NCBI RefSeq assembly: GCF_000010065.1
Contig: NC_006576.1
Location: forward strand, 840,001-872,000
Reading direction: 5' to 3'
Source of the DNA: Synechococcus elongatus PCC 6301
Lineage (GTDB): Bacteria; Cyanobacteriota; Cyanobacteriia; Synechococcales; Synechococcaceae
Length of the DNA stretch: 32,000 bases
Of this stretch, positions 21,831 to 31,440 are shown one piece after another (the first letter of the stretch is position 1; each line of letters opens with the position of its first letter). A model generated the notes under the pieces. It was not told the origin of the DNA. It worked only from the letters and a program-made list of their open reading frames with translations, and searched no databases. The position numbers and the translations under genes are program-made.

Positions 21831-22478
21831 TCAGGGTTTCAGGCAGCGATCGAGGAGCAGCTCTTTGGTGCTGAGCAGCCAGTTGCAGAGTGTGTCTGCC
21901 TGTTTGGCGAGACTGCGATCGCGGCTGAGTCGGTTGATCTGCGACAGCGCATAGATCGCCTGCACCATCCCAAACTGGAAGTCGCTCAGGAGTTCAGCAT
22001 CGGTCTTTGCTGCCGGATTGGACTGCGTGAAGCGGCCACTTTCGTCGCGGTTCCGATGCCAGTCAGCGGGCGCTGTCGTCTTGCGCCGGAGTGGCACAGG
22101 CTGCGAGGTGGGCAGCGCTGCAGTGGGCAGGGCTTTTTGATCGCGCTCCTCGGACTCGCGAATCCTCAGGTAGAAATACTCTTGGGCAGCAGCCACTGAG
22201 CGCTTTCTTGGGTCGGAGTTCATCGCCACGAGGTATGCCGCCAAGCGCGATAGCCTGTAGTCCTCTCTCGGGCGTCCGCCTGTTTTGAACTTTGTTATCG
22301 TGCGGCTGAAGTGATCTGCTACATGCTTCCCACGGCGCTGGCATGAGATGATCGCGCGATCAATGGCGTTGGTGAAATGCTGCCAGTGCGGGTAATCCAG
22401 AAAACCCATCAGCTCGCGCCCATTCCAGAACTCTTGGCCGTTCTCGACGTGGCGAATGCTGTCAAACGGTGAAGTCAT
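21831..22478 (-). CDS. DNA damage-inducible protein D-like (DinD / BRO-N domain)
   Basis: PFDSIRHVENGQEFWNGRELMGFLDY..W..F..AIDRA...C and YRLSRLAAYLVAMNSDPRKRSVAAAQEYF closely follow the DinD pattern as I recall it. Confidence 0.7.
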   Translation of the reverse strand: MTSPFDSIRHVENGQEFWNGRELMGFLDYPHWQHFTNAIDRAIISCQRRGKHVADHFSRTITKFKTGGRPREDYRLSRLAAYLVAMNSDPRKRSVAAAQEYFYLRIRESEERDQKALPTAALPTSQPVPLRRKTTAPADWHRNRDESGRFTQSNPAAKTDAELLSDFQFGMVQAIYALSQINRLSRDRSLAKQADTLCNWLLSTKELLLDRCLKP

Positions 22479-22540
22479 TGTTCAGTTATCCAGAAAATTG
22501 GTGATTGGGCTGTGTCGCTAGATCCGAACGGTTCGGGAAA

Positions 22541-22819
22541 TTAGCCGATGCAGACGTAGACGCCGCGTGAGCGAACTAATGCGTAAGTGGTGCCGTGTCG
22601 GTCTTCGTAGGTCTTCGGCGCTTCGTCGATCGGATAAGCGCGGCCTTGGCAATAGACGACACGGCAGTACAGCTCACTGGCTGGCAAGGGCTGATGGCAA
22701 TGCGGGCAGGTCTCCCAGCGATGAAGCGCTGGCAACAGCGGGCCAGCTTCCGGAAATTCGTGCGCGGTTCGGTAAGCCGCCTGATGGGCAGCCTTGTCGA
22801 TGTCGAATGAAGGATTCAT
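22541..22819 (-). CDS. Phage hypothetical protein (CxxC-containing)
   Basis: Internal ATG at 22819 (MNPSFDID...); CPHCHQ and YCRVVYC. The longer track ORF would run through the divergent HTH gene. Confidence 0.45.
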   Translation of the reverse strand: MNPSFDIDKAAHQAAYRTAHEFPEAGPLLPALHRWETCPHCHQPLPASELYCRVVYCQGRAYPIDEAPKTYEDRHGTTYALVRSRGVYVCIG

Positions 22820-22841
22820 GATTGTTGTGTTCGAAAGGACA

Positions 22842-22879
22842 AGAAAGGCGGCTTGCTTACCAGGCGGGGTCGCCTTTCT
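22842..22879. repeat. R0: hairpin element in the divergent intergenic region, a degenerate relative of R1-R4
   Basis: AGAAAGGCG - 20 nt (contains CCAGGC) - CGCCTTTCT, then TCTATG. It resembles GAAAAC..CCCAGCC..GTTTTCC..CTTGCTATG of R1. Confidence 0.35.
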
Positions 22880-22962
22880 TCTATGCCTAGAGTTACAGCA
22901 CCATATGCTGCTGTCAATATGCAGGGCTGATAAAATTTGAGGTACCAAGAGAGGAGAGGTCG

Positions 22963-23181
22963 ATGAAAGTGCGTTGTAAGCTACCGGAGCTAATCCGAGA
23001 TGCAGGCTTAACACAAGGAAGAGTGGCAACAGAAGCAGGGCTGAGCCCCGTGACTGTGAGTAAGCTGTGTCGTCAACACTTCAGCCAGATAGACGTTGAA
23101 ACGGTTTACAAGCTATGCCGCTTCTTCCAGCTCAAATCAATTGATGACCTGTTAGAAATTGAGCGTAGCGAGCCTTCTTGA
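22963..23181 (+). CDS. XRE/Cro-type helix-turn-helix regulator (paralog 1)
   Basis: MKVRCKLPELIRDAGLTQGRVATEAGLSPVTVSKL...LCRFFQLKSIDDLLEIE is the short XRE HTH pattern. Confidence 0.8.
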   Translation: MKVRCKLPELIRDAGLTQGRVATEAGLSPVTVSKLCRQHFSQIDVETVYKLCRFFQLKSIDDLLEIERSEPS

Positions 23182-23195
23182 GTTTCCTCGCTTGA

Positions 23196-23240
23196 CCGCG
23201 AAAACTCCTCCCAGCCTGCGTTTTCCGTTTCTCTTCTTGC
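23196..23240 (+). repeat. R1: conserved ~40-bp inter-cassette element
   Basis: ccgcGAAAACtcCTCCCAGCCTGCGTTTTCCGTTTCTcttcttgc, about 15 nt after the HTH1 stop. Confidence 0.8.
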
Positions 23241-23272
23241 TATGAAACCGCTTTTAGCGTTATCAAAAGCCG

Positions 23273-23512
23273 ATGAAAGTGCGTTGCTACCTAAGAGAAC
23301 TGATGGAAGAGCGAGGGCTTGATCAGAAGTCCTTGGCGATCGCAGCTGGCTTAGGCGTAACGACCGTGAGCCGCCTTTACAAGAACCGGTTTGACCGCGT
23401 GGACGTGACGACACTGACAAAGCTGTGCAAGTTCTTCCAGCTCAAGTCAGTTAACGAACTTTTAGATATCGAAGTAGAAGATGAAGATCCGAGGTCTCAA
23501 GACCCTTGGTAG
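23273..23512 (+). CDS. XRE/Cro-type helix-turn-helix regulator (paralog 2)
   Basis: MKVRCYLRELMEERGLDQKSLAIAAGLGVTTVSRL...LCKFFQLKSVNELLDIE. The first 14 nt of the CDS are identical to paralog 1. Confidence 0.8.
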   Translation: MKVRCYLRELMEERGLDQKSLAIAAGLGVTTVSRLYKNRFDRVDVTTLTKLCKFFQLKSVNELLDIEVEDEDPRSQDPW

Positions 23513-23557
23513 AGTTTTTATTGACGCCAATAAAAAGCCTCTGACCTTTTTGGCGAC

Positions 23558-23605
23558 CCCGCCGAAAAACCCTCCCAGCCTGCGTTTTCCGTTTCTATTT
23601 CTGTT
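23558..23605 (+). repeat. R2: conserved ~40-bp inter-cassette element
   Basis: cccGCCGAAAAAcCCTCCCAGCCTGCGTTTTCCGTTTCTATTTCtg. Confidence 0.8.
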
Positions 23606-23618
23606 AGTAAATACCCTT

Positions 23619-23879
23619 ATGAAAAATTACGCTGTGCCAAACATTGCGGCGCTTAGGAAGCGCACTGGGCTGAGCCAAACGCAGCTGGCTAACATCGTTG
23701 GCGTTGACCCTGTGACAATCCGCAACTGGGAAAGAGGGCGATCGGGCCTTGACTGGTTTGTGAAGCTCGCCAAGTTGTGCGAAGCACTTGACTGCTCTCC
23801 TCGTGACTTAGTCAAGGATCCGGACAGTGAATCAAAAAAGGTGCCACGGACAGTTAATGAGCTTTTTGCAAGCTTCTAA
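23619..23879 (+). CDS. XRE-type helix-turn-helix regulator (divergent third copy)
   Basis: LRKRTGLSQTQLANIVGVDPVTIRNWERG...LAKLCEALDCSPRDL. The internal ATG at 23619 is preferred, because the upstream part of the track ORF reads through R2. Confidence 0.78.
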   Translation: MKNYAVPNIAALRKRTGLSQTQLANIVGVDPVTIRNWERGRSGLDWFVKLAKLCEALDCSPRDLVKDPDSESKKVPRTVNELFASF

Positions 23880-23896
23880 AACTTTTTACGGGACGT

Positions 23897-23940
23897 GCCT
23901 GAAAAGCTCTCCCAGCCTACGTTTTCCGTTTCACTTCTCA
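23897..23940 (+). repeat. R3: conserved ~40-bp inter-cassette element
   Basis: gcctGAAAAGctCTCCCAGCCTaCGTTTTCCGTTTCacttctc, about 18 nt after the HTH3 stop. Confidence 0.8.
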
Positions 23941-23950
23941 TCACAAAAGC

Positions 23951-23984
23951 AAAGCCCCAAGTGTAGACCGAGGGGCTTTTTTGT
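23951..23984 (+). terminator. Rho-independent terminator
   Basis: AAAGCCCC - 13-nt loop - GGGGCTTT, followed by TTTTG. The composition switches to AT-rich immediately after it. Confidence 0.7.
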
Positions 23985-24306
23985 TAGATGAGGTGCTTTC
24001 AAATCGCTTTCTAGTGTTTTTATGACTACTAAAGCACTACATATAGTGTCTATTGTGTGATGTAATTCGCCTTGCTAACGAAAAGTGGAAAGCTTCGATA
24101 GTATGAAGTCGGAGCTTGTTAAGTCTCGCTTGGGGCGAAGGTATGCCGTATCTACCTGGAACAGGTCAAAACATAGAACGAATGGACGCCTGTTGAGTTA
24201 TCAAATTCGTGCGCTGAAATCAGTATAAGTCAAGAAAAATAGAACTTCTATAACAAGCTAATCCTATGTTAGGTCTGCGGGAGTAGGACGTCTGAGGGAA
24301 TTTCAC

Positions 24307-24858
24307 ATGGCTCTGGAATCAAGGGACAAATTAAAATCATTGGTTCACTACATTTGTAGTAAACGATCAGGTTCTCCGAGCCTGGGCTCAACCAAGCTGA
24401 ATAAGATTCTTTGGTTTCTCGATAGTATTGTTTACCGACAAACAGGAAAACCAATTACAGGTGCAAAATACAAAAAACTTCAACATGGTCCAGTACCAGT
24501 AGATATTCTTGCGATCCAAAAGGAATTGGAATCAGAAGGTAAGATATCTGTTAGTTATGACAGGTCTTACGGATTTGGATTCCGCACAACAATATATACT
24601 TCTTTGCAAGAGCCCGACAAAAGCTTGCTTGAAGAAGACGAACTCAAATTTGTAGATATTGTCATTTCACGGATCTGCGACGGCCACACAGCCAGATCCA
24701 TCAGCGAGCATTCGCATGACGTTATCTGGGAGGCTGCCGCCATGGGTGAGGAGATACCTCTTGAGGCAGTTTTAGCGTCAGAGGAAGCTCCACTAGAGCC
24801 TGAAGATATAGATTGGGCTCGTGGCGTCATCCGAAAACGGAAAGAAGGAATTGCTTAA
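24307..24858 (+). CDS. Panacea/SocA-like (DUF4065) antitoxin-domain protein
   Basis: GSTKLNKILWFLDSIVYRQTGKPITGAKYKKLQHGPVP matches the DUF4065 core pattern (KLxKLLYf.D ... G.P.tg..y....GPv). Confidence 0.72.
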   Translation: MALESRDKLKSLVHYICSKRSGSPSLGSTKLNKILWFLDSIVYRQTGKPITGAKYKKLQHGPVPVDILAIQKELESEGKISVSYDRSYGFGFRTTIYTSLQEPDKSLLEEDELKFVDIVISRICDGHTARSISEHSHDVIWEAAAMGEEIPLEAVLASEEAPLEPEDIDWARGVIRKRKEGIA

Positions 24859-25172
24859 TGCAAGGCGGGTCATGGTTTGCCAAGTCAATCATAGAGTCCG
24901 AAGAAACGATAAGAGTAAAGGATTATGCGTCTAGTGAATTTTGGCGCTTTGATTCAGCCTGGAACGGTATTACTTGGCGACTTGCAAGACAAGCTCATTT
25001 GATGGGGACGGAGATTGGCGGATACAGGGTATATAAATTCCCTGGAATTGACGCAGGCGGTGAATCTGTCCCATCCATGGTCTTGGTCTTTGAAGTCCGG
25101 GAGGATGAAGTAGAGATAATTGATTTGCGGATAGGCCCCCCTGTCGCTGACACCTACGAGCTGGATTGGTAG
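24858..25172 (+). CDS. Small unassigned protein translationally coupled to the DUF4065 gene (candidate toxin partner)
   Basis: Its ATG overlaps the upstream stop (TAATG at 24856-24860). 104 aa. The C-terminal YRVYKF...MVLVFEVREDEVEIIDLRI is only loosely reminiscent of RelE/ParE-fold strands. Confidence 0.55.
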   Translation: MQGGSWFAKSIIESEETIRVKDYASSEFWRFDSAWNGITWRLARQAHLMGTEIGGYRVYKFPGIDAGGESVPSMVLVFEVREDEVEIIDLRIGPPVADTYELDW

Positions 25173-25231
25173 TAGCAATCTACTGATAATTCAAGAGATC
25201 ACCTAGCCTTTTGATAGTTTAGGATAACCCA

Positions 25232-25272
25232 GCCGAAAAGCCTGCCCCATCATCGTTTTCCATTTCTATTCA
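25232..25272 (+). repeat. R4: diverged copy of the inter-cassette element
   Basis: GCCGAAAAgcCtgCCCcatcatCGTTTTCCaTTTCTATTc shares GCCGAAAA, CGTTTTCC and TTTCTATT with R2. Confidence 0.65.
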
Positions 25273-25360
25273 GGCTGCCAATTCACTTGTTAGAAGTTAA
25301 ATGTTGTGCTTCTGACAAACCTCAATACGTGGTTTACACACACAATTTTAGGTTCTGATC

Positions 25361-26089
25361 ATGCTGACAGATAATCATGAGGCTTTTTTCTCACCATCTA
25401 ATAACCAAACAATTTGGCGCTATATGGACTTCACAAAGTTCATTAGTTTACTTGAAACCCAAAAGCTTTTCTTTGCTAGGTTAGACCAGTTTGAGGATCC
25501 CTACGAAGGCACTTGGTCAAATGCAGGCATTCAAGTTCTTCGAAACCAAGTACAAATTGGTGCTTTCTCAAATAATGCTGCTGAACAATTAATCAATTTT
25601 CAGGATATTCAGAGGAAAATAATGTTTATCAGTTGTTGGCATGCCAATGAGTTTGAATCAGCAGCAATGTGGAAACTCTATCTAAATAGCAATGAAGGTG
25701 TTGCTATTAAAACTGATTACAATACACTCGCAATCAGCCTAGAAAGTGCACCACTAAAAGCGGGGATATCAATGGTGAGATATATTGATTATGACAATGA
25801 AGTAATTCCATTCAATAACATTTTTTATCCCATTACTCACAAAAGACGTAGTTTTGCCCATGAAAAAGAGCTTAGGGCAATTATGTGGACGCCAGAAGCC
25901 ATTCAAGATCCAGACAAGATACTAAATTCAGTTACTGTTGATATCTTGCCGTCTCAACTTATACAGTCTGTATATGTATCACCAACCGCACCTAGGTGGT
26001 TTGGTGAGTTAGTCGACAATGTGGCTCGCCGTTATAGTCTAGAAGTTCCTGTTATTCACTCAGATCTCTATAACCGACCTGTTTTCTAA
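25361..26089 (+). CDS. DUF2971 family protein
   Basis: IWRYMDFTKFISLLETQKLFFARLDQFEDPYEG matches the N-terminal DUF2971 pattern (l.rY......l..l....l.fs....f.DP.E). Confidence 0.6.
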   Translation: MLTDNHEAFFSPSNNQTIWRYMDFTKFISLLETQKLFFARLDQFEDPYEGTWSNAGIQVLRNQVQIGAFSNNAAEQLINFQDIQRKIMFISCWHANEFESAAMWKLYLNSNEGVAIKTDYNTLAISLESAPLKAGISMVRYIDYDNEVIPFNNIFYPITHKRRSFAHEKELRAIMWTPEAIQDPDKILNSVTVDILPSQLIQSVYVSPTAPRWFGELVDNVARRYSLEVPVIHSDLYNRPVF

Positions 26090-26314
26090 ACTGCTAAGTC
26101 TTTCAACCTATCAGAAGAGATATTAATTTTGTTCTTTTTGAAGATACTCTTCCCGACTAGGTAATAATGACATTGGGAGTTGAACTTCTTACTAGTTGCT
26201 GTAATTACTAGATATCTTAGCTACTTAACTAAAAAGTTTTAGTAACGATAGAATTCTAAGGTTTTACTTGTAATTTTGCATAAAATAAAGTTTGGATCTT
26301 CCAGAACAAAAAAC

Positions 26315-26907
26315 TTACCAAACACTAGATGCTGTTCTGACAGACAGATATTTCTGATTAAGTATTTCGTAAAAATTACCTCTTTTATTAATAATTTTAT
26401 CTAGTTCTTTAGCATCAAAGGTTATCACAACTATTTTATCCTTAACCTAGGCATTACGAATGATTTGTTTTGCATCTTTCGTGATGCCATTTGTAGCAAA
26501 AAAAATTCCAATATTAGCGTCAACATCCCGCATTTTGGAGCAGAAAGTTCTTAACTCACATGCACCTACTGTTTTTTGCCAATTTTTACATTCAACGATT
26601 AGTAAATAAGAAAATTCAAAGAAAAGAGTAGCTTCAATTCGTTTTACGGTAAAGTCTAAATCTATTTCTCCTGTTTCACACCTCCTTCTTTTACTATTAA
26701 GCTTTAGAATAAGGAGATTCTAGAAAATTATGAGCTAGCTCCTCAAGAACTAAACCAAGGTCATCATCTTCTCTTGGTTTATTTACTCTTGACAGTAAAT
26801 CAGTAAGCAAATCTCTAGACTTATTAATTTTCTCATCTAATACTATCTCAGGGGTACAGCTTCAACTTATCAAAGAGAGTTAAATCTTGGTGTGAGTTAT
26901 CTCCCAC
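26315..26907 (-). pseudogene. Mrr-type (Mrr_cat / PD-(D/E)xK) restriction endonuclease-like gene with multiple frameshifts and an in-frame TAG
   Basis: AGGAGG plus a GTG at 26907 opens a 19-codon frame. After a frame change comes ...DLLTDLLSRVNKPREDDDLGLVLEELAHNFLE. After another frame change comes GEIDLDFTVKR...LLIVECKNWQKTVGACELRTFCSKMRDVDANIGIFFATNGITKDAKQ (D..ExK core). Then a TAG at 26447-49, then VKDKIVVITFDAKELDKII. Confidence 0.7.
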
Positions 26908-26916
26908 TCTAGCCTC

Positions 26917-27654
26917 CTAAATCCGAGTTAAGACAATCTGATTATCTTGCAATTCTCGTGATTTAGAATCTTGATCTAACTCAAAAGTTTCATTAAATGA
27001 GTAGGTTAAAAATATATTTTTCTCGGAAACTTCAAACTCGTGAGAACAATGACTGCATTTATTCTCTTCATTCAAAGGTATATCTCTATAACTAGAGTAA
27101 ACTTCTATGGTTTCCTGACAATTTGGGCAGACAAGTTCAAATTGTTCTGTGAGGTACCCTAATCTCACTAACCTTGAAATAGTCTCTATCCATTTTCCTT
27201 CATCTAAGCTAAAGCCAAGTGTTTGATAGATTCGTGGGTTAAATCTTTTTCCATATCCATGGCTGCGAATAGCATGAATAAGTGATTGAATAACATTTTC
27301 ATCTGACGTGGTTACATCTGACTTTAAGCCTAATTTTTTCAATGATGGTAAAAACTTTATTTTGTGCACAATTGAAAAGACATACTCAATAAGCTCTTCA
27401 GGAACATCACTCATAAACCATATATTCCCTTGGCTACTAATATGCAAAGAAGACTCGATTATTTTTCTCGAATAAGAAGTATAGAGAAACTCTAGACGGG
27501 TTTCTCTTAAGTCCCCTTGAGCAAAATAATTTGTATATTCTTCAGATGCATCTAAGTCATCTAAATCAGGAGAGGCAGAGACATAGATTGTATCAATATC
27601 TCCACCAAATCTCTTATATTTTGTAGCTTTTGATTTCCCATTGAGTTCGTTGTT
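26917..27654 (-). CDS. Unassigned protein with a C-terminal zinc ribbon. The frame is open upstream of the TTG start and overlaps the end of the preceding ORF, so it is possibly the 3' half of a split gene.
   Basis: The track ORF 26917..27447 starts at TTG. The same frame stays open to 27654 and encodes a plausible peptide (KRFGGDIDTIYVSASPDLDD...). Zinc ribbon: CPNCQ-x18-CSHCSH. Confidence 0.5.
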   Translation of the reverse strand, partial: NNELNGKSKATKYKRFGGDIDTIYVSASPDLDDLDASEEYTNYFAQGDLRETRLEFLYTSYSRKIIESSLHISSQGNIWFMSDVPEELIEYVFSIVHKIKFLPSLKKLGLKSDVTTSDENVIQSLIHAIRSHGYGKRFNPRIYQTLGFSLDEGKWIETISRLVRLGYLTEQFELVCPNCQETIEVYSSYRDIPLNEENKCSHCSHEFEVSEKNIFLTYSFNETFELDQDSKSRELQDNQIVLTRI

Positions 27655-28297
27655 TTAAAAGCAAAATATCTTGATTAGTAAAAGTCATAGGTTCTATTTC
27701 TATGCCGAGCAACAATGACATCGAGTTGTACAGCATTTCACTTTCGCGAATACTAGCTCTTGTCTCGACAACAAAAGTTGTATCTAGAAGCCTAATGTAA
27801 GAATTTAAGCGCTTAGTAGGAATAACTATGCGTCTTTCATAATTATCTTCGATTTCATATTTTTTCCCAGCACAAACAAATTCAAGACGCAATAAATTTC
27901 CACTGATCCATTCAGCACTGTTAAAGGCAGGCTTTTGAGTAAGTTGAGGCCTTATTTCGTTCTTGAATGGATCAGCTGAGTTTCTATCTTGAATGATCTT
28001 GCTGAGCTCATTTCTAGATAGTATTCTCCTCTCTAGGGGTATACCCCAGCAAACTGAAACTCTACCTGCAAATTTATAAGATTGAATCAGTTTAATAATG
28101 CTATTGATGTCAATAGCATTTTGGTCAAGAAGTATTTGTACTTCATTGATAAGAGCATCTTTTGTAGTATGTTTTGGCAGATCTTGCCCACCATCGGCAT
28201 CACCCAATAATTCTTGAAGGGCTTTAACAGGAACATACTTATCTAGCTCCTGAAGAAGGGGAAAGAATCCTAAGTTATTGGAAGACTGCTCTTTCAT
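27614..28297 (-). CDS. Unassigned protein (227 aa), possibly the 5' half of a frameshift-split gene
   Basis: ATG-initiated ORF in AT-rich cargo. No motif I can assign. Its last 41 nt overlap the open upstream extension of the next ORF in the +1 frame. Confidence 0.55.
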   Translation of the reverse strand: MKEQSSNNLGFFPLLQELDKYVPVKALQELLGDADGGQDLPKHTTKDALINEVQILLDQNAIDINSIIKLIQSYKFAGRVSVCWGIPLERRILSRNELSKIIQDRNSADPFKNEIRPQLTQKPAFNSAEWISGNLLRLEFVCAGKKYEIEDNYERRIVIPTKRLNSYIRLLDTTFVVETRASIRESEMLYNSMSLLLGIEIEPMTFTNQDILLLKQRTQWEIKSYKI

Positions 28298-28489
28298 GCC
28301 GAGGCAATTAATTCAAAAGGTAATATCATTAATCCTGTTGGCCTTATTTTAGCCTAAACATACCCAAAGTGAGCTGCTCAGAATTAAAGTAAAGTAATAC
28401 TTATAGATTTATTGAGATTTAAGACAACTTAGGCAAAATAAGTAATAGTCAGTAGTCTAGAAGAATAAAAAATTATCTCAAGAACAATC

Positions 28490-28912
28490 TTACTTGAGAT
28501 GCTTAACTGAAGCACTAGTCAACTCTTGTAACTTAGATGCCACTTCCACTCTATGACATCTTGAGAAATCCATCTCTGCACAGAGCAATAAAATGTTTCC
28601 AGTCTCAAGCATCTCAGCAACTTCGCATAAGGTTTGCTTAGCTGCTTCAGGTTCAGGTGGAATCCAATGACTACTACCTGACAAATTACCTAGCGATGAC
28701 TTAGAAACATATTGAATATTTTCAGAGGTGCAAAGCTTTTGAAGAGCATCTCCGTACCACATTCTAGACCAGGCACGTGGCTTCAATCTTACATCGACTA
28801 CACAGGTGACACTAAATTCTCTAAGACAAGAAAGAAAAGCATCATAATTTTTTCGGTTTCCGTAACCGAAGGTCAGCACTGTCTTGCTTTCAGAAGTTGC
28901 TAAATCAGGCAT
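28490..28912 (-). CDS. DUF488 family protein
   Basis: LTFGYGNR, FSVTCVVDVRLKPR and ILLLCAEMDFSRCHR follow the DUF488 pattern (T.GHs.r..e.F...L......lvDVR..P ... LlC.E.....CHR). Confidence 0.75.
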   Translation of the reverse strand: MPDLATSESKTVLTFGYGNRKNYDAFLSCLREFSVTCVVDVRLKPRAWSRMWYGDALQKLCTSENIQYVSKSSLGNLSGSSHWIPPEPEAAKQTLCEVAEMLETGNILLLCAEMDFSRCHRVEVASKLQELTSASVKHLK

Positions 28913-28913
28913 T

Positions 28914-29729
28914 TTACAAGTCCAGTAAGCTCAGAGTTTGTACATCAGTTTCTCGGGAGTTTTTTGGAGGGTAAAATATTCCTATAATCATAAAAACTTT
29001 GCAATGCTGTTTGAGATTACCTACTATAAAATAAATATCTTTTTTAGACAAGAACTCATTTTCTAGCTTCTCTCTAACCTTGGATAAGGATTCTAATTCT
29101 CTTCCCTCTAGACTGGAAGCATTAGATTTATCTCGACACTTTCTATAAAGTTCGCAGATCTCCCAGTCGCTTATTGAGTACGAACGTTTTTTGTTATCTA
29201 CTTCAGTAAATTGGTAGCCAAACTGGTAAGGTATTTTCTCTAGATTCAACGAAGGCTCGAACAAATCACCCTGATCTTGAATAGCTCTTTGCTTTGGGCT
29301 CCACTCACGTTCAGTTTCTCTGCAAAAATATTTTTCTATACTTCTGGGCTTAATTATGCCTAAAGATTTTCCTTGTGCTTGTATTTCAGCGATAGATCTG
29401 AATTGCAAAGGTAATACAAAAGACTTACGCTCTTCCCAGTTATTTTTGGTTCCTATGTGCCTGACTACATCTATTGAAGTATCATTAATCCGATAACTTT
29501 CTTCTCGATAGTCTTTCTCATTTCTTTCGACTTCTGCACTAATAATCGACCATCTCTTATAACGCTTGTCGAAGTCTAGATTTCGAAATCTCACTGGATA
29601 AATTCGAATCCACTGGACGGGTTTTTCATTGGCATCCAGAAGAATTCCTGCAGTACAAACAGTTTCCTTATACTTGGTACTAATAGATGGATAGGTTTTA
29701 GTTGCAATTAGGATCTTTCGTCTTTCCAT
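28914..29729 (-). CDS. Unassigned 271-aa protein, first gene of a two-gene operon with DUF488
   Basis: Clean ATG ORF. Its stop TAA (28914-16) is separated by 1 nt from the DUF488 ATG (28912). I recognise no catalytic or family motif. Confidence 0.65.
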   Translation of the reverse strand: MERRKILIATKTYPSISTKYKETVCTAGILLDANEKPVQWIRIYPVRFRNLDFDKRYKRWSIISAEVERNEKDYREESYRINDTSIDVVRHIGTKNNWEERKSFVLPLQFRSIAEIQAQGKSLGIIKPRSIEKYFCRETEREWSPKQRAIQDQGDLFEPSLNLEKIPYQFGYQFTEVDNKKRSYSISDWEICELYRKCRDKSNASSLEGRELESLSKVREKLENEFLSKKDIYFIVGNLKQHCKVFMIIGIFYPPKNSRETDVQTLSLLDL

Positions 29730-29766
29730 CTACGTCATGAATCACATATTTTTAGCTAAGCCACCA

Positions 29767-29794
29767 TAATACTTTCTCTTGAGTCTTTGTTAAA
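29767..29794 (-). promoter_or_regulatory. Candidate sigma70-type promoter for the 271-aa/DUF488 operon
   Basis: Minus strand: TTAACA (29794-29789), a 16-nt spacer, then TATTAT (29772-29767), about 35-40 nt upstream of the ATG at 29729. Confidence 0.35.
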
Positions 29795-29946
29795 AAGCAA
29801 AATATGACCTTTTCATCTCAGATCAATGAATACATGAGAGTTAAACACTATCTGTAGTGGCCAAGTAGTTTTGATAGCCACTATCTTGTGTTTCTTATCG
29901 AGAGAATTAATCTCACTTCTCAGCTAACTGTTGCCTCGGCTCCTCT

Positions 29947-29972
29947 CAAAACACCCCCAGCCGCTGTCTGCA
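29947..29972 (+). repeat. R5: possible half-copy of the inter-cassette element at the right GC boundary
   Basis: caAAACacCCCCAGCCgctg shares AAAA-n-C..CCCAGCC with the left half of R1-R3. The right half is not conserved. Confidence 0.3.
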
Positions 29973-30000
29973 CCTATTGAGCGATCGCACCAATCAAGCC

Positions 30001-30465
30001 CTAGGCAAACGGGTCTTGATTACTGCCCATCATGCGGCTGAGACGTCGGGCACGCTCACCCACCTGGTCAGCCCAGAGGCTGTTCAGCATCTCATCAGCT
30101 GCCTCGGCGTAGCGTCCGGCCTCAATGTGGCCTAGGGTCTTACGGAAGCGAAGCAGGCCGTCGATACCCAGATTAATTGCCATGTCGATCAGCACTCGCT
30201 GACGCACCCACGAAAGCTGTCTAACCCAAGGCAGGCGCGACTCAAGCTGTCGCATTGCGTGGTCGATGTCGCTCACCAGCAGCAACCGCGCTTCAGCCTC
30301 ACTGATGCCGCGGTCGTCCAGATTGCGACCGATGCCAATCGTCAGCCTGCCCGCCGTGCAGCGGTACGGCTTCAGCCGCAAGCCCTCATGCAAGGTCAAC
30401 TGCCGAATCAGGTCGACACGCTCGCCGGTAAGTTGGTCTGCAATCGTGCGGATGCGGTCACTCAT
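30001..30465 (-). CDS. Phage lysozyme (glycoside hydrolase family 24, T4-lysozyme type)
   Basis: LTLHEGLRLKPYRCTAGRLTIGIGRNL (catalytic E, then the D/T region), typical of GH24 endolysins. Confidence 0.85.
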   Translation of the reverse strand: MSDRIRTIADQLTGERVDLIRQLTLHEGLRLKPYRCTAGRLTIGIGRNLDDRGISEAEARLLLVSDIDHAMRQLESRLPWVRQLSWVRQRVLIDMAINLGIDGLLRFRKTLGHIEAGRYAEAADEMLNSLWADQVGERARRLSRMMGSNQDPFA

Positions 30466-30638
30466 TTCTTCGCTCTTGCGCCAAGGAACCCTGCCGCAAA
30501 CTCAACCGCTCGATAGACCCCACCCAGCACCTGATTATCCTTAGGCGTTGGGGTCAAATTCACAATCACCAGCGCGGCCGCATGGACGTACAGAAATACC
30601 GTGAAAATCTCATCCTTGTGCTGGAGGATTTGAGACAT
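30462..30638 (-). CDS. Small hydrophobic phage protein (58 aa), coupled to the lysozyme gene
   Basis: My own translation: MSQILQHKDEIFTVFLYVHAAALVIVNLTPTPKDNQVLGGVYRAVEFAAGFLGARAKK. Its stop overlaps the lysozyme ATG (ATGA at 30462-65). It is below the track length cutoff. Confidence 0.45.
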   Translation of the reverse strand: MSQILQHKDEIFTVFLYVHAAALVIVNLTPTPKDNQVLGGVYRAVEFAAGFLGARAKK

Positions 30639-30667
30639 GGAGTTTGTGAAAAATCAACACCCCAATT

Positions 30668-30862
30668 CTAATTACCCCCATCATCCTTGTCTTGGCTTCG
30701 AGGGGTCATCAGAGCAAACAGCGACGAGACGTAGATCATCGTCAGCTCAGCGAAGCGCGGCCGAAGCTCCTTGTCCTGGTAGGCCATGACGCTGAAGGCG
30801 ATGAACAGCAGCGTTGCCAGCCCAGCCAGCACATTGAACCGCTGCCGATCATCGCTGCTCAT
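30668..30862 (-). CDS. Holin-like small membrane protein (64 aa, two hydrophobic segments)
   Basis: The internal ATG at 30862 overlaps the M15 stop (ATGA). FNVLAGLATLLFIAFSVMAY and MIYVSSLFALM are hydrophobic; the C-terminus is charged. Confidence 0.5.
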   Translation of the reverse strand: MSSDDRQRFNVLAGLATLLFIAFSVMAYQDKELRPRFAELTMIYVSSLFALMTPRSQDKDDGGN

Positions 30863-31440
30863 CAGTAGTCCCAAACCCCTTTCGGCCCGTCGTCGAGGTG
30901 CACGAACCGGCGACCAGCTTTGATGCCGCGACCCACGCCGCCGTTCCAGTTCTGCTCGCACCACTGTTCGAACTCAAGCGGATTGAACTGGAGTGGGGAC
31001 ACATCAGCCGCGCCGCCAGTCAGGTGATAGCTGTCGTCAACACCACCAACCCGAGCGTTAGTCACCGGGTCGCGGAACCAAGACGTGACACCCAGCGGGC
31101 CGAACTGCTTACGGAGTACGTCGAGCCGTGCAGCCAGCTTCACGATCCGCCGCTTGTTCTCAGCAGTCACCCGCTGCCTACGGAAGTCATCGAACTGGAA
31201 CACCTCGCCCACCGTGAAGTGCTCAGAAACGCGAGCATCCCACTCACTCCACTGAACCGTCTCAGCCGTGAGTGGTTGCGCGTTCGCCGTGCGGTAGGTC
31301 TTGACCCACTCGGCACTGTCCCGCATGGCAGCGTCGGGAATCACACCCGCCAACATATAGGCAGCCCGGCGATGGTTAGGGTTGTTGGGGTCGAAGTGGA
31401 TGAAGAAATCGAGGAACTTATCAGCCGTAATGGTGCTCAT
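30862..31440 (-). CDS. Peptidase M15-family (D-Ala-D-Ala carboxypeptidase-like) cell-wall hydrolase
   Basis: SWFRDPVTNARVGGVDDSYHLTGGAADV plus a downstream HLDD match the zinc-binding H..D...H arrangement of M15A phage peptidases. Confidence 0.8.
   Translation of the reverse strand: MSTITADKFLDFFIHFDPNNPNHRRAAYMLAGVIPDAAMRDSAEWVKTYRTANAQPLTAETVQWSEWDARVSEHFTVGEVFQFDDFRRQRVTAENKRRIVKLAARLDVLRKQFGPLGVTSWFRDPVTNARVGGVDDSYHLTGGAADVSPLQFNPLEFEQWCEQNWNGGVGRGIKAGRRFVHLDDGPKGVWDY

Follow-up and report, generated by a model that had tools for sequence, protein, structure and literature searches.

A conserved element after the stacked repressor genes of a Synechococcus elongatus prophage as a possible 3'-UTR RNA module

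What does a short sequence do when it recurs after successive repressor-type genes of a prophage? The question is raised by Synechococcus elongatus PCC 7942/6301, a main cyanobacterial model, whose prophage switch has been examined only recently. The window analyzed here, a stretch of 32,000 nucleotides from PCC 6301, corresponds to the right end of the 49-kb S. elongatus prophage known from the literature, and its + strand genes form a constitutively transcribed lysogeny operon. An initial annotation of this DNA described a repeat, R, after three helix-turn-helix (HTH) genes and considered it a recombination site for gene cassettes or an operator. Based on the current evidence, R may well be a transcribed, sense-strand non-coding module that acts on mRNA, the native 3'-UTR of immunity-repressor genes of temperate cyanobacterial phages belonging to one small group. 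This is the best explanation at present, although a tentative one.

Four copies at one locus

A repeat search recovered the copies R1 to R4 much as they had first been described, as 49-nt sequences at 23199, 23563, 23900 and 25234, with the last three sharing 84, 76, and 65% identity with R1. The 22-mer core of the element has three matches at up to three mismatches, and no match of any kind was obtained in 100 shuffles. In the 2.70-Mb genome, a degenerate 32-mer detects exactly R1 to R4, all on the + strand and within 2.1 kb. The whole-genome profile search that the initial annotation had suggested gave E-values of at most 1e-11 for the four copies (nhmmer), and the next best match in the genome had an E-value of 4.4. 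Thus, R is found at one locus only and is not the genome-wide dispersed repeat that had been named as the outcome speaking against the proposal. The copies begin 18, 51, 21, and 62 nt past a stop codon, so they do lie shortly after genes, and R marks the 3' ends of successive stacked HTH gene units, as had been thought (Table 1). The most diverged copy, R4 (65% identity with R1), lies inside the 24111-26112 transcript, and its hairpin is not significant.

Outside this genome, a degenerate pattern scan of 40 relatives found no copies, exact and degenerate scans of viral contig collections returned 0 matches, and a blastn search of INPHARED gave no match. Rfam covariance models run over window 22000-31000 had no match at E <= 1. 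Two pattern matches in a genome contig collection, both in unrelated MAGs, were judged to be chance. In a metagenome contig collection, one pattern scan gave 0 matches and another a single match inside a TA gene, which was likewise judged to be chance. R is a new element, but of an ordinary kind.

Table 1. Features in and around the lysogeny operon (positions in the window)
Feature	Position	Strand	Remarks
R0 hairpin and T-rich tail	22842..22894	+	Divergent switch region; conserved, separate from R
HTH1, XRE/Cro-C1 protein, 72 aa	22963..23181	+	No annotation in PCC 7942; mapped TSS at 22944
R1 module: H1 23180-23207, core 23200-23231, pyrimidine-rich tail	23180..23247	+	Between HTH1 and HTH2; nhmmer E 2.9e-13 in genome
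HTH2 (Synpcc7942_0764)	23273..23512	+	
R2 module: H1 23547-23568, core 23564-23595	23547..23611	+	Between HTH2 and HTH3
HTH3, 86 aa (true extent of Synpcc7942_0763)	23619..23879	+	
R3 module: H1 23882-23906, core 23901-23932	23882..23948	+	HTH3 3'-UTR, directly 5' of terminator; homologous to L041 and L042 3'-UTRs
Intrinsic terminator of HTH operon	23950..23994	+	Apparently bidirectional (minus-strand terminator prediction); nearly identical in L041, L042, L043 (alignment, alifold)
Panacea (SocA-like) gene and overlapping 104-aa partner	24307..25172	+	Own promoter, TSS at 24111
R4: H1 degenerate, core 25235-25266	25206..25282	+	Between Panacea partner gene and PDC-S31/DUF2971 gene; nhmmer E 1.1e-11

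Two further sequences had been assigned to the same family. The supposed half-copy R5 (29947-29972) is undetected by the nhmmer profile even at E <= 100 and is without structure; its resemblance is a chance match. The supposed degenerate relative R0 is also undetected at E <= 100 and is unrelated in sequence. Its hairpin is strong (z = -3.2), with four compensatory pairs across five phage loci, and a very abundant RNA of the + strand (22308-22894), which runs antisense to 0765/0766, ends at it. R0 is a separate, conserved terminator hairpin. In base-pairing tests between R and this RNA, z was about 0. With R5 discounted, the suggested bracketing of the foreign block by R3 and R5 fails; moreover, homology to the relatives stops at the terminator (about 23984) and not at R3.

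The gene map of the operon also bears on what R might encode. HTH1 is a paralogue of HTH2 (the latter called the immunity repressor in the literature), in a 310-bp register, as seen by repeat comparison in the window. The PDC-S31 gene has no homologue among 300 genomes. In PCC 7942, R2 is annotated as the N-terminus of Synpcc7942_0763. This annotation raises the possibility that R encodes a short peptide, K-x-PPSLRFPFLFLL, either in frame +1 with respect to the preceding gene or as that N-terminus. The frame is open in R1 to R3, and several differences among R1, R2, and R4 are synonymous in it. However, the homologues of HTH3, which are 72-87 aa long, lack the extension, the stops that precede R4 are not followed by a start codon, and indels and substitutions destroy the peptide in the related loci L010, L041, and L042. 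A coding function is thus highly improbable. For prophage engineering or curing, the map is refined to an operon of three repressor-type genes with a conserved RNA module between them, in which HTH1 is an unannotated first gene and 0763 a mis-annotated third gene.

A hairpin and a pyrimidine-rich tract

R had been drawn as a hairpin with GAAAAC/GTTTTC arms and CCTCCCAGCC as the loop. These arms form no stable hairpin (z = -0.7 to +0.2), and folds of the whole element are no better than those of shuffles over the same range. CCTCCCAGCC is therefore not a loop, and of the earlier proposal that R is under sequence constraint with its best-conserved part in a hairpin loop, the constraint stands and the loop does not. 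The actual hairpin, H1, joins the invariant GAAAA to a U-tract that lies at the upstream stop codon or just past it. The module consists of H1, with the U-tract as 5' arm and GAAAA as 3' arm, then about 25 nt of pyrimidine-rich RNA that is conserved and unstructured (CCUCCCAGCC..GUUUUCCGUUUC) and, in the last copy of the operon, an intrinsic terminator.

H1 is the minimum free energy (MFE) fold in all seven local sequences, with p <= 0.004 in three of them; it is not significant for R4, L042, and L010. In R1, where the 5' arm overlaps the HTH1 stop codon, the MFE fold has a free energy of -9.7 kcal/mol (p 0.004). The R2 hairpin comprises 9 bp, including one U·G pair (-10.9 kcal/mol, p < 0.001). 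The inner stem varies by copy (UCGC/GCGA, GGCG/CGCC, GCGG/CCGC, and AGG/CCU), and matched arms are more stable than swapped ones (-8.3 vs. -5.9 kcal/mol), although the statistics are modest (permutation p 0.03). The U·G pairs in H1 of R2 and R3 are possible only in RNA of the + strand. Together with the compensatory changes, they point to a structure in sense-strand RNA. This covariation rests on few events because only three or four independent homologues exist.

The behavior of the arms also bears on the proposal that R is a DNA operator or roadblock, bound by one of the three HTH proteins and damping read-through of their own operon in the manner of a stoperator. Such a role would fit the asymmetric, intergenic sites, all oriented with transcription, the three HTH proteins encoded next to them, and RNA levels that step down across each copy. 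In contrast, the conserved sequence has no dyad, and the inverted-repeat arms covary instead of staying conserved, which argues for nucleic-acid structure rather than protein recognition. In addition, nhmmer finds only four sites; all fall in one 2.1-kb stretch of the 49-kb prophage, and the lytic genes have none. In sequence, R is unlike the operator-like repeats that the S. elongatus prophage and its relatives carry in their switch regions. It also follows repressors of two different families, whose specificities should differ. An operator is accordingly improbable.

R is not a simple terminator either, as had been recognized from the start: there is no terminator-like site at R1 to R4, the U-run lies 14 nt past H1, and the real terminator is separate. 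No promoter-like site was found at the four copies, and the RNA polymerase ChIP peaks listed for the region (window 22857, 24129, 24742, and 24933) are all elsewhere.

Transcripts, relatives, and the fate of the repeat

In the published transcript maps, every R copy lies within a sense transcript (22944 to 23512, 23517 to 23994, and 24111 to 26112). The 0763 transcript has its mapped 3' end at window 23994, and Logan contigs of about 1 kb span 22952-23996. RNA levels, taken from published mean coverage, drop across each R copy, from about 21.7 (derived) to 9.1 and 2.75 reads/nt, and also from 43.3 to 8.9; this step-down could be ordinary operon polarity or low-coverage noise.

Related loci in metagenomic contigs place R in the same position. 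L041 and L042 carry an R-like element (nhmmer E 3e-4 and 9e-4) and a near-identical terminator after HTH3-type repressor genes. L043 has only the right half of R, with gene and terminator kept, and L010 has a weak R copy and a terminator after an HTH1/2-type gene. Between phages, identity is 70-92% in the 3'-UTR vs. 60-74% in the adjacent CDS. Judged from these alignments, the R-bearing 3'-UTR is at least as conserved as coding sequence. Homologues of HTH1/2 in 400 cyanobacterial genomes have no R downstream. When the L042 3'-UTR was used as a BLAST query against 400 cyanobacterial genomes, only short matches were obtained beyond the window's own genome, and these were chance-like in the five loci inspected.

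The same comparisons could be read more simply. It is possible, if somewhat unlikely, that R is a 3'-UTR carried along whenever a repressor gene was tandemly duplicated or a cassette stacked, homogenized by short-tract gene conversion and without any function beyond that of the last-copy terminator. Passive carriage would agree with the paralogy and 310-bp register of HTH1 and HTH2, with the decayed hairpin of R4, and with the fact that L043 lost the left half of R but not its gene or terminator. Moreover, the block promoter-HTH1-R1-HTH2-R2, which ends just past R2, is an addition compared to the L041-type relative. However, the R1 to R3 cores are identical at 30-31 of 32 positions, while the best-matching HTH1/HTH2 coding segments are only ~76-77% identical, even though this near-identity could reflect gene conversion instead of selection. 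It is also difficult to reconcile passive carriage with a 3'-UTR that equals or exceeds the CDS in conservation, in phages whose repressors share only 62-74% identity, or with H1 pairing maintained through differing sequences.

Alternatively, gene cassettes could be exchanged or stacked by homologous or site-specific recombination at R, which would then be a conserved boundary in the DNA, comparable to attC or to the PeSL of phage T4. R stands behind all three stacked HTH genes and also behind a gene pair unrelated to them, and the extra L010-type block stops 23 nt past R2. In addition, the upstream hairpin region is 88% identical between L010 and L042, which carry different repressor families, and this indicates mosaic exchange around the immunity gene. 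The recombination or insertion site proposed by the initial annotation finds no counterpart in the element itself, which has no attC-like fold. The only GTT-containing core in R is GTTTTCC, with pyrimidines at the RRR positions of GTTRRRY, and the nearest tyrosine recombinase (PF00589) is encoded at genome position 908378, 45 kb away. R also has neither a promoter nor a listed RNA polymerase peak, homologues of the Panacea partner elsewhere are without R, and no contig in which the element flanks different cargo was found in the viral, genome, and metagenome collections. A recombination linker is therefore unlikely, and R does not represent a novel type of mobile-cassette system. Overall, the integron attC site, operator, and coding peptide readings of R are all poorly supported.

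With R read as an RNA module acting on mRNA, three repressor-type genes would have been stacked in one lysogeny operon, each retaining its R tail and thereby multiplying R, so that R1 and R2 now sit as intercistronic spacers and R3 as a 3'-UTR; the diverged fourth copy lies in the next transcript. Some factor would read the single-stranded C/U tract, and cleavage in this tract may leave H1 to shield the 3' end of the upstream cistron. Such cleavage and protection would give a stepwise fall in RNA across the R copies and would thereby set the ratio of the repressors. Through processing and stability, then, R probably shapes mRNA 3' ends and polarity. As such, it would be a compact means of adjusting the ratios of cistrons within cyanobacterial operons, and the locus illustrates how immunity genes can be stacked in a cyanophage.

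A more elaborate version is doubtful. Here, R would be an undescribed regulatory RNA module specific to cyanophage immunity operons. Either a factor from the host or the phage would recognize its tract, or R would itself work as an sRNA derived from the 3'-UTR or as a Shine-Dalgarno sponge. It would tune the ratio of stacked repressors and hence immunity against heteroimmune relatives, and HTH3 might be a captured 'orphan' repressor because the genome has no cognate operator cluster. The CCUCCC/GUUUUCC tract, invariant and single-stranded, has the same sequence as the anti-Shine-Dalgarno core. Within the prophage, complementarity of R to possible targets is no more than chance, with one 12-mer, outside the core, vs. 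about 0.65 expected.

Comparison with known systems

Several known systems share features with R. As in integron attC/CALIN arrays, a conserved element is present at the 3' end of several genes in the same orientation. Unlike attC, R has no R''-L''/L'-R' hairpin, GTTRRRY core, or IntI, does not flank cargo elsewhere, and possesses the short 5' H1 as its sole hairpin. In T4-type phages, the promoter-early stem-loop (PeSL) is a repeated ~50-nt element between small ORFs of a plastic region, for which a role in shuffling has been proposed. R likewise is repeated, is about 50 nt long with a stem-loop, and lies among small ORFs where a phage genome is plastic; however, it lacks a sigma-70 promoter and goes with repressor genes instead of hyperplastic early regions.

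The stoperators of mycobacteriophage L5 are 13 bp long and number 20-30 per genome, spread over the lytic arms. Both they and R are asymmetric repeats in short intergenic spaces, with one orientation, in a temperate phage with an HTH repressor. In contrast, R is about 50 nt long, all four copies are in the lysogeny operon, and its arms covary like RNA structure.

Other resemblances are to RNA elements. One known class of sRNA is derived from 3'-UTRs and has a C-rich seed next to the terminator. R3 and its terminator are laid out in this way, with a single-stranded CCUCCC tract and, behind it, a strong terminator hairpin, but the published map lists no separate small transcript for them. In the Rhodobacter puf operon and the REP elements of E. 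coli malEFG, intercistronic or 3'-UTR hairpins set differential mRNA levels within an operon. R differs from these stabilizers in its additional 25-nt, sequence-conserved C/U-rich tract and its restriction to a phage immunity operon, and its processing role is a proposed one. As in these stabilizers, a sense-strand hairpin, here with compensatory changes, stands right after a cistron and inside a polycistronic transcript, and the upstream RNA segment is more abundant than the downstream one.

Prophage locus and gene annotation

One contig of 2,696,255 bp (C1) makes up the genome, with the window at C1:840001-872000, and coordinates in the PCC 7942 transcriptome tables were converted as coord7942 = 780868 - window position. 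Under this rule, Synpcc7942_0762 (756010-756561 in PCC 7942) falls at 24307-24858. Because PCC 7942 coordinates map onto the window, its 21-32 kb interval corresponds to the right-hand end of the 49-kb "legacy" prophage published for S. elongatus (Synpcc7942_0716-0767), whose Cro/C1-type switch separates a lytic operon that is silent from a lysogeny operon that is expressed constitutively. The + strand carries three XRE-type HTH genes, a Panacea/SocA gene with an overlapping partner and a PDC-S31/DUF2971 gene, and the - strand carries low-GC cargo, including a PDC-M19 pair, and then lysis genes.

Features of the locus (window coordinates)
Feature	Position	Strand	Remarks
Antirepressor 0766	21831-22478	-	Member of silent lytic operon
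Non-coding RNA	22308-22894	+	4836 reads/nt (published PCC 7942 map)
Synpcc7942_0765	22541-23029	-	As annotated; 162 aa, TTG start
R0	22842-22894		Hairpin
Transcript 1	22944->23512	+	16.4 reads/nt (published PCC 7942 tables); R1 inside
HTH1	22963-23181	+
R1	23180-23247	+
HTH2 (Synpcc7942_0764)	23273-23512
Transcript 2	23517->23994	+	3.8 reads/nt; ends at hairpin 23950-23985; R2 in leader, R3 in 3'-UTR ahead of terminator
R2	23547-23611	+
Synpcc7942_0763	23550-23879		As annotated; TTG start, frame runs through R2
HTH3	23619-23879
R3	23882-23948	+
Transcript 3	24111->26112	+	Published tables; R4 between its cistrons
Antisense transcript	25211->24048	-	Published; opposite Panacea pair
R4	25206-25282	+
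0760/0759 region	within 26315-28297	-
R5	29947-29972		Proposed half-copy

HTH1, which lacks annotation in PCC 7942, makes a good XRE gene: its SD is strong and a TSS has been mapped 19 nt upstream. The 0765 gene that overlaps it is annotated too long; relatives have a 90-aa gene at this place, which fits a start at 22819. No HTH3 homologue (on the related phage contigs L041, L042 and L043) falls outside 72-87 aa, so the 132-aa ORF and the PCC 7942 0763 annotation are artefacts, and the true start is the ATG at 23619. The L041 repressor, to which HTH3 is 74% identical, has CTTTACG/CGTAAAG repeats in its switch region. The present genome contains no cluster of this motif at any place, so HTH3 may act as an orphan repressor that confers immunity to heteroimmune phages.

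The assembly shows the 0760 nuclease region disrupted in several frames and 0759 divided between ORFs of 176 and 227 aa. Both are intact in the PCC 7942 annotation (591 and 1380 nt), and their deletion gives a pigmentation phenotype. Because many errors have been reported in the published PCC 6301 sequence, this apparent decay may be a sequencing artefact. Over the HTH operon, the assembly differs from six independent Logan contigs at three single bases (23345, 23556 and 23848), none in an R core; errors in the reference or SNPs between strains could account for them.

Number, distribution and fold of the R repeat

The four full copies proposed initially were borne out by a repeat search as a 49-nt family, R1-R4. 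The 22-mer core has three matches at <=3 mismatches and none in all 100 shuffles. Across the whole genome, a degenerate 32-mer and an nhmmer profile both recover exactly these four, at one locus and all on the + strand (E <= 1e-11 each; next best match E = 4.4). A degenerate pattern search of 40 relatives and a pattern scan of viral contigs gave no copies, and two genome-contig matches were judged to be chance. R is thus not a generic dispersed repeat. Loosening the patterns, or running BLAST on 400 cyanobacterial genomes, yielded no additional R. The proposed outliers did not hold up: relaxing the profile to E <= 100 still recovers neither R5 nor R0. R5 is an unstructured chance match, and R0 is a separate element.

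The initial annotation had paired GAAAAC with GTTTTC, but no such hairpin is predicted (z = -0.7 to +0.2). Instead, GAAAA of every copy is predicted to pair with a U-tract that lies at the upstream stop codon or just beyond it, rather than with the downstream GUUUUC, forming a short 5' hairpin, H1. This is the minimum-energy fold in 7/7 local sequences. In R1, R2 and L041 it differs significantly from shuffles (p <= 0.004), and in R4 it is weak. Its inner stem varies with pairing kept (UCGC/GCGA, GGCG/CGCC, A-GG/CCU, GCGG/CCGC, AGG/CCU), and matched 5' and 3' arms bind more strongly than those exchanged among copies (-8.3 versus -5.9 kcal/mol, permutation p 0.03). H1 of R2 and R3 contains U·G pairs, which on the opposite strand become C·A mismatches; this favours a sense-RNA structure rather than a DNA palindrome read by a protein. 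The 25 nt 3' of H1 are conserved, pyrimidine-rich and unstructured. An encoded peptide was excluded by indels in relatives and the short HTH3 homologues.

Transcription across the repeats

From the published transcript positions, R1-R4 all lie inside sense transcripts. Logan contigs of ~1 kb span 22952-23996 in one piece, consistent with a single operon RNA. Mean coverage declines at each copy, from ~21.7 (derived from transcript and ORF means) to 9.1 and then 2.75 reads/nt, and from 43.3 to 8.9 reads/nt. None of the four RNA polymerase ChIP peaks listed for the region (22857, 24129, 24742 and 24933) falls on a copy. A TAAACT -10-like hexamer lies in the H1 region of R4 (within 25211-25222, - strand), and the antisense transcript opposite the Panacea pair begins 6 nt downstream of it.

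The best-supported reading is that R is a 3'-UTR/intercistronic RNA module that belongs natively to repressor genes. In it, H1 would protect the cistron upstream, the single-stranded C/U tract after it would serve as a cleavage or factor-binding site, and together they would account for the step-down in RNA level and fix repressor stoichiometry. The module's anatomy, orientation, conservation and placement within transcripts are established, and its part in RNA processing is inferred. The main rival is that R hitch-hikes passively, with gene conversion. An operator or roadblock for an HTH protein is unlikely, as the sites are confined to 2.1 kb, differ from the operator-like repeats of switch regions and follow repressors from two different families. 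Searches of the antisense RNA and the prophage found no complementary RNA partner.

Relatives, R0 and cassette stacking

R0 is a strong hairpin (z = -3.2) with a T-rich tail, terminator-like in a consensus scan. Four contigs of related phages conserve it, and in four of its pairs both sides have changed without loss of pairing. The abundant non-coding RNA, against ~3-43 reads/nt for neighbouring genes, is antisense to lytic-side genes 0765/0766 and has its 3' end at R0. Given the hairpin's strength, this RNA and the conserved pairing, R0 is a functional element in its own right, the 3' end of an antisense RNA, and unrelated to R. The RNA has no Rfam match and may maintain lysogeny.

The HTH2 family has one close relative, a 72-aa homologue on contig L010, with an R0-like hairpin upstream and a weak R-like stretch then a terminator downstream. 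On L010 (1-94), a perfect 24-bp inverted repeat (TGTTGACACAAACATCGGAAGCGG) stands on both sides of the R0-like hairpin that precedes the HTH gene, and is probably that phage's operator arrangement. Closer relatives exist for HTH3, on L041, L042 and L043. Clear R copies follow HTH3-type relatives (nhmmer E 3e-4 and 9e-4), joined to a near-identical terminator (CAAAGCCCC...CGAGGGGCTTTTT), and L043 retains only the right half of R. Among these phages, 3'-UTRs are 70-92% identical versus 60-74% for coding DNA. R is absent downstream of more distant homologues of either HTH family and at homologues of the Panacea partner.

Two stretches of the window, 22625-22875 and 23617-23984, are shared with L041. 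The 741 nt between them (promoter, HTH1, R1, HTH2, R2) are extra and L010-like; in this prophage, therefore, a duplicated immunity cassette of L010 type has been stacked ahead of a repressor gene of L041 type, with every gene retaining its tail. The cassette picture proposed at the outset thus stands as description, with repeats marking stacked repressor units, and finds no support as mechanism: R has neither an attC-like fold nor a GTTRRRY core and fails the attC tests for a recombination site, the nearest integrase is 45 kb off, and R5 supplies no second boundary. R itself is a genuine cis element, ordinary in kind, restricted to its lineage and not previously reported.
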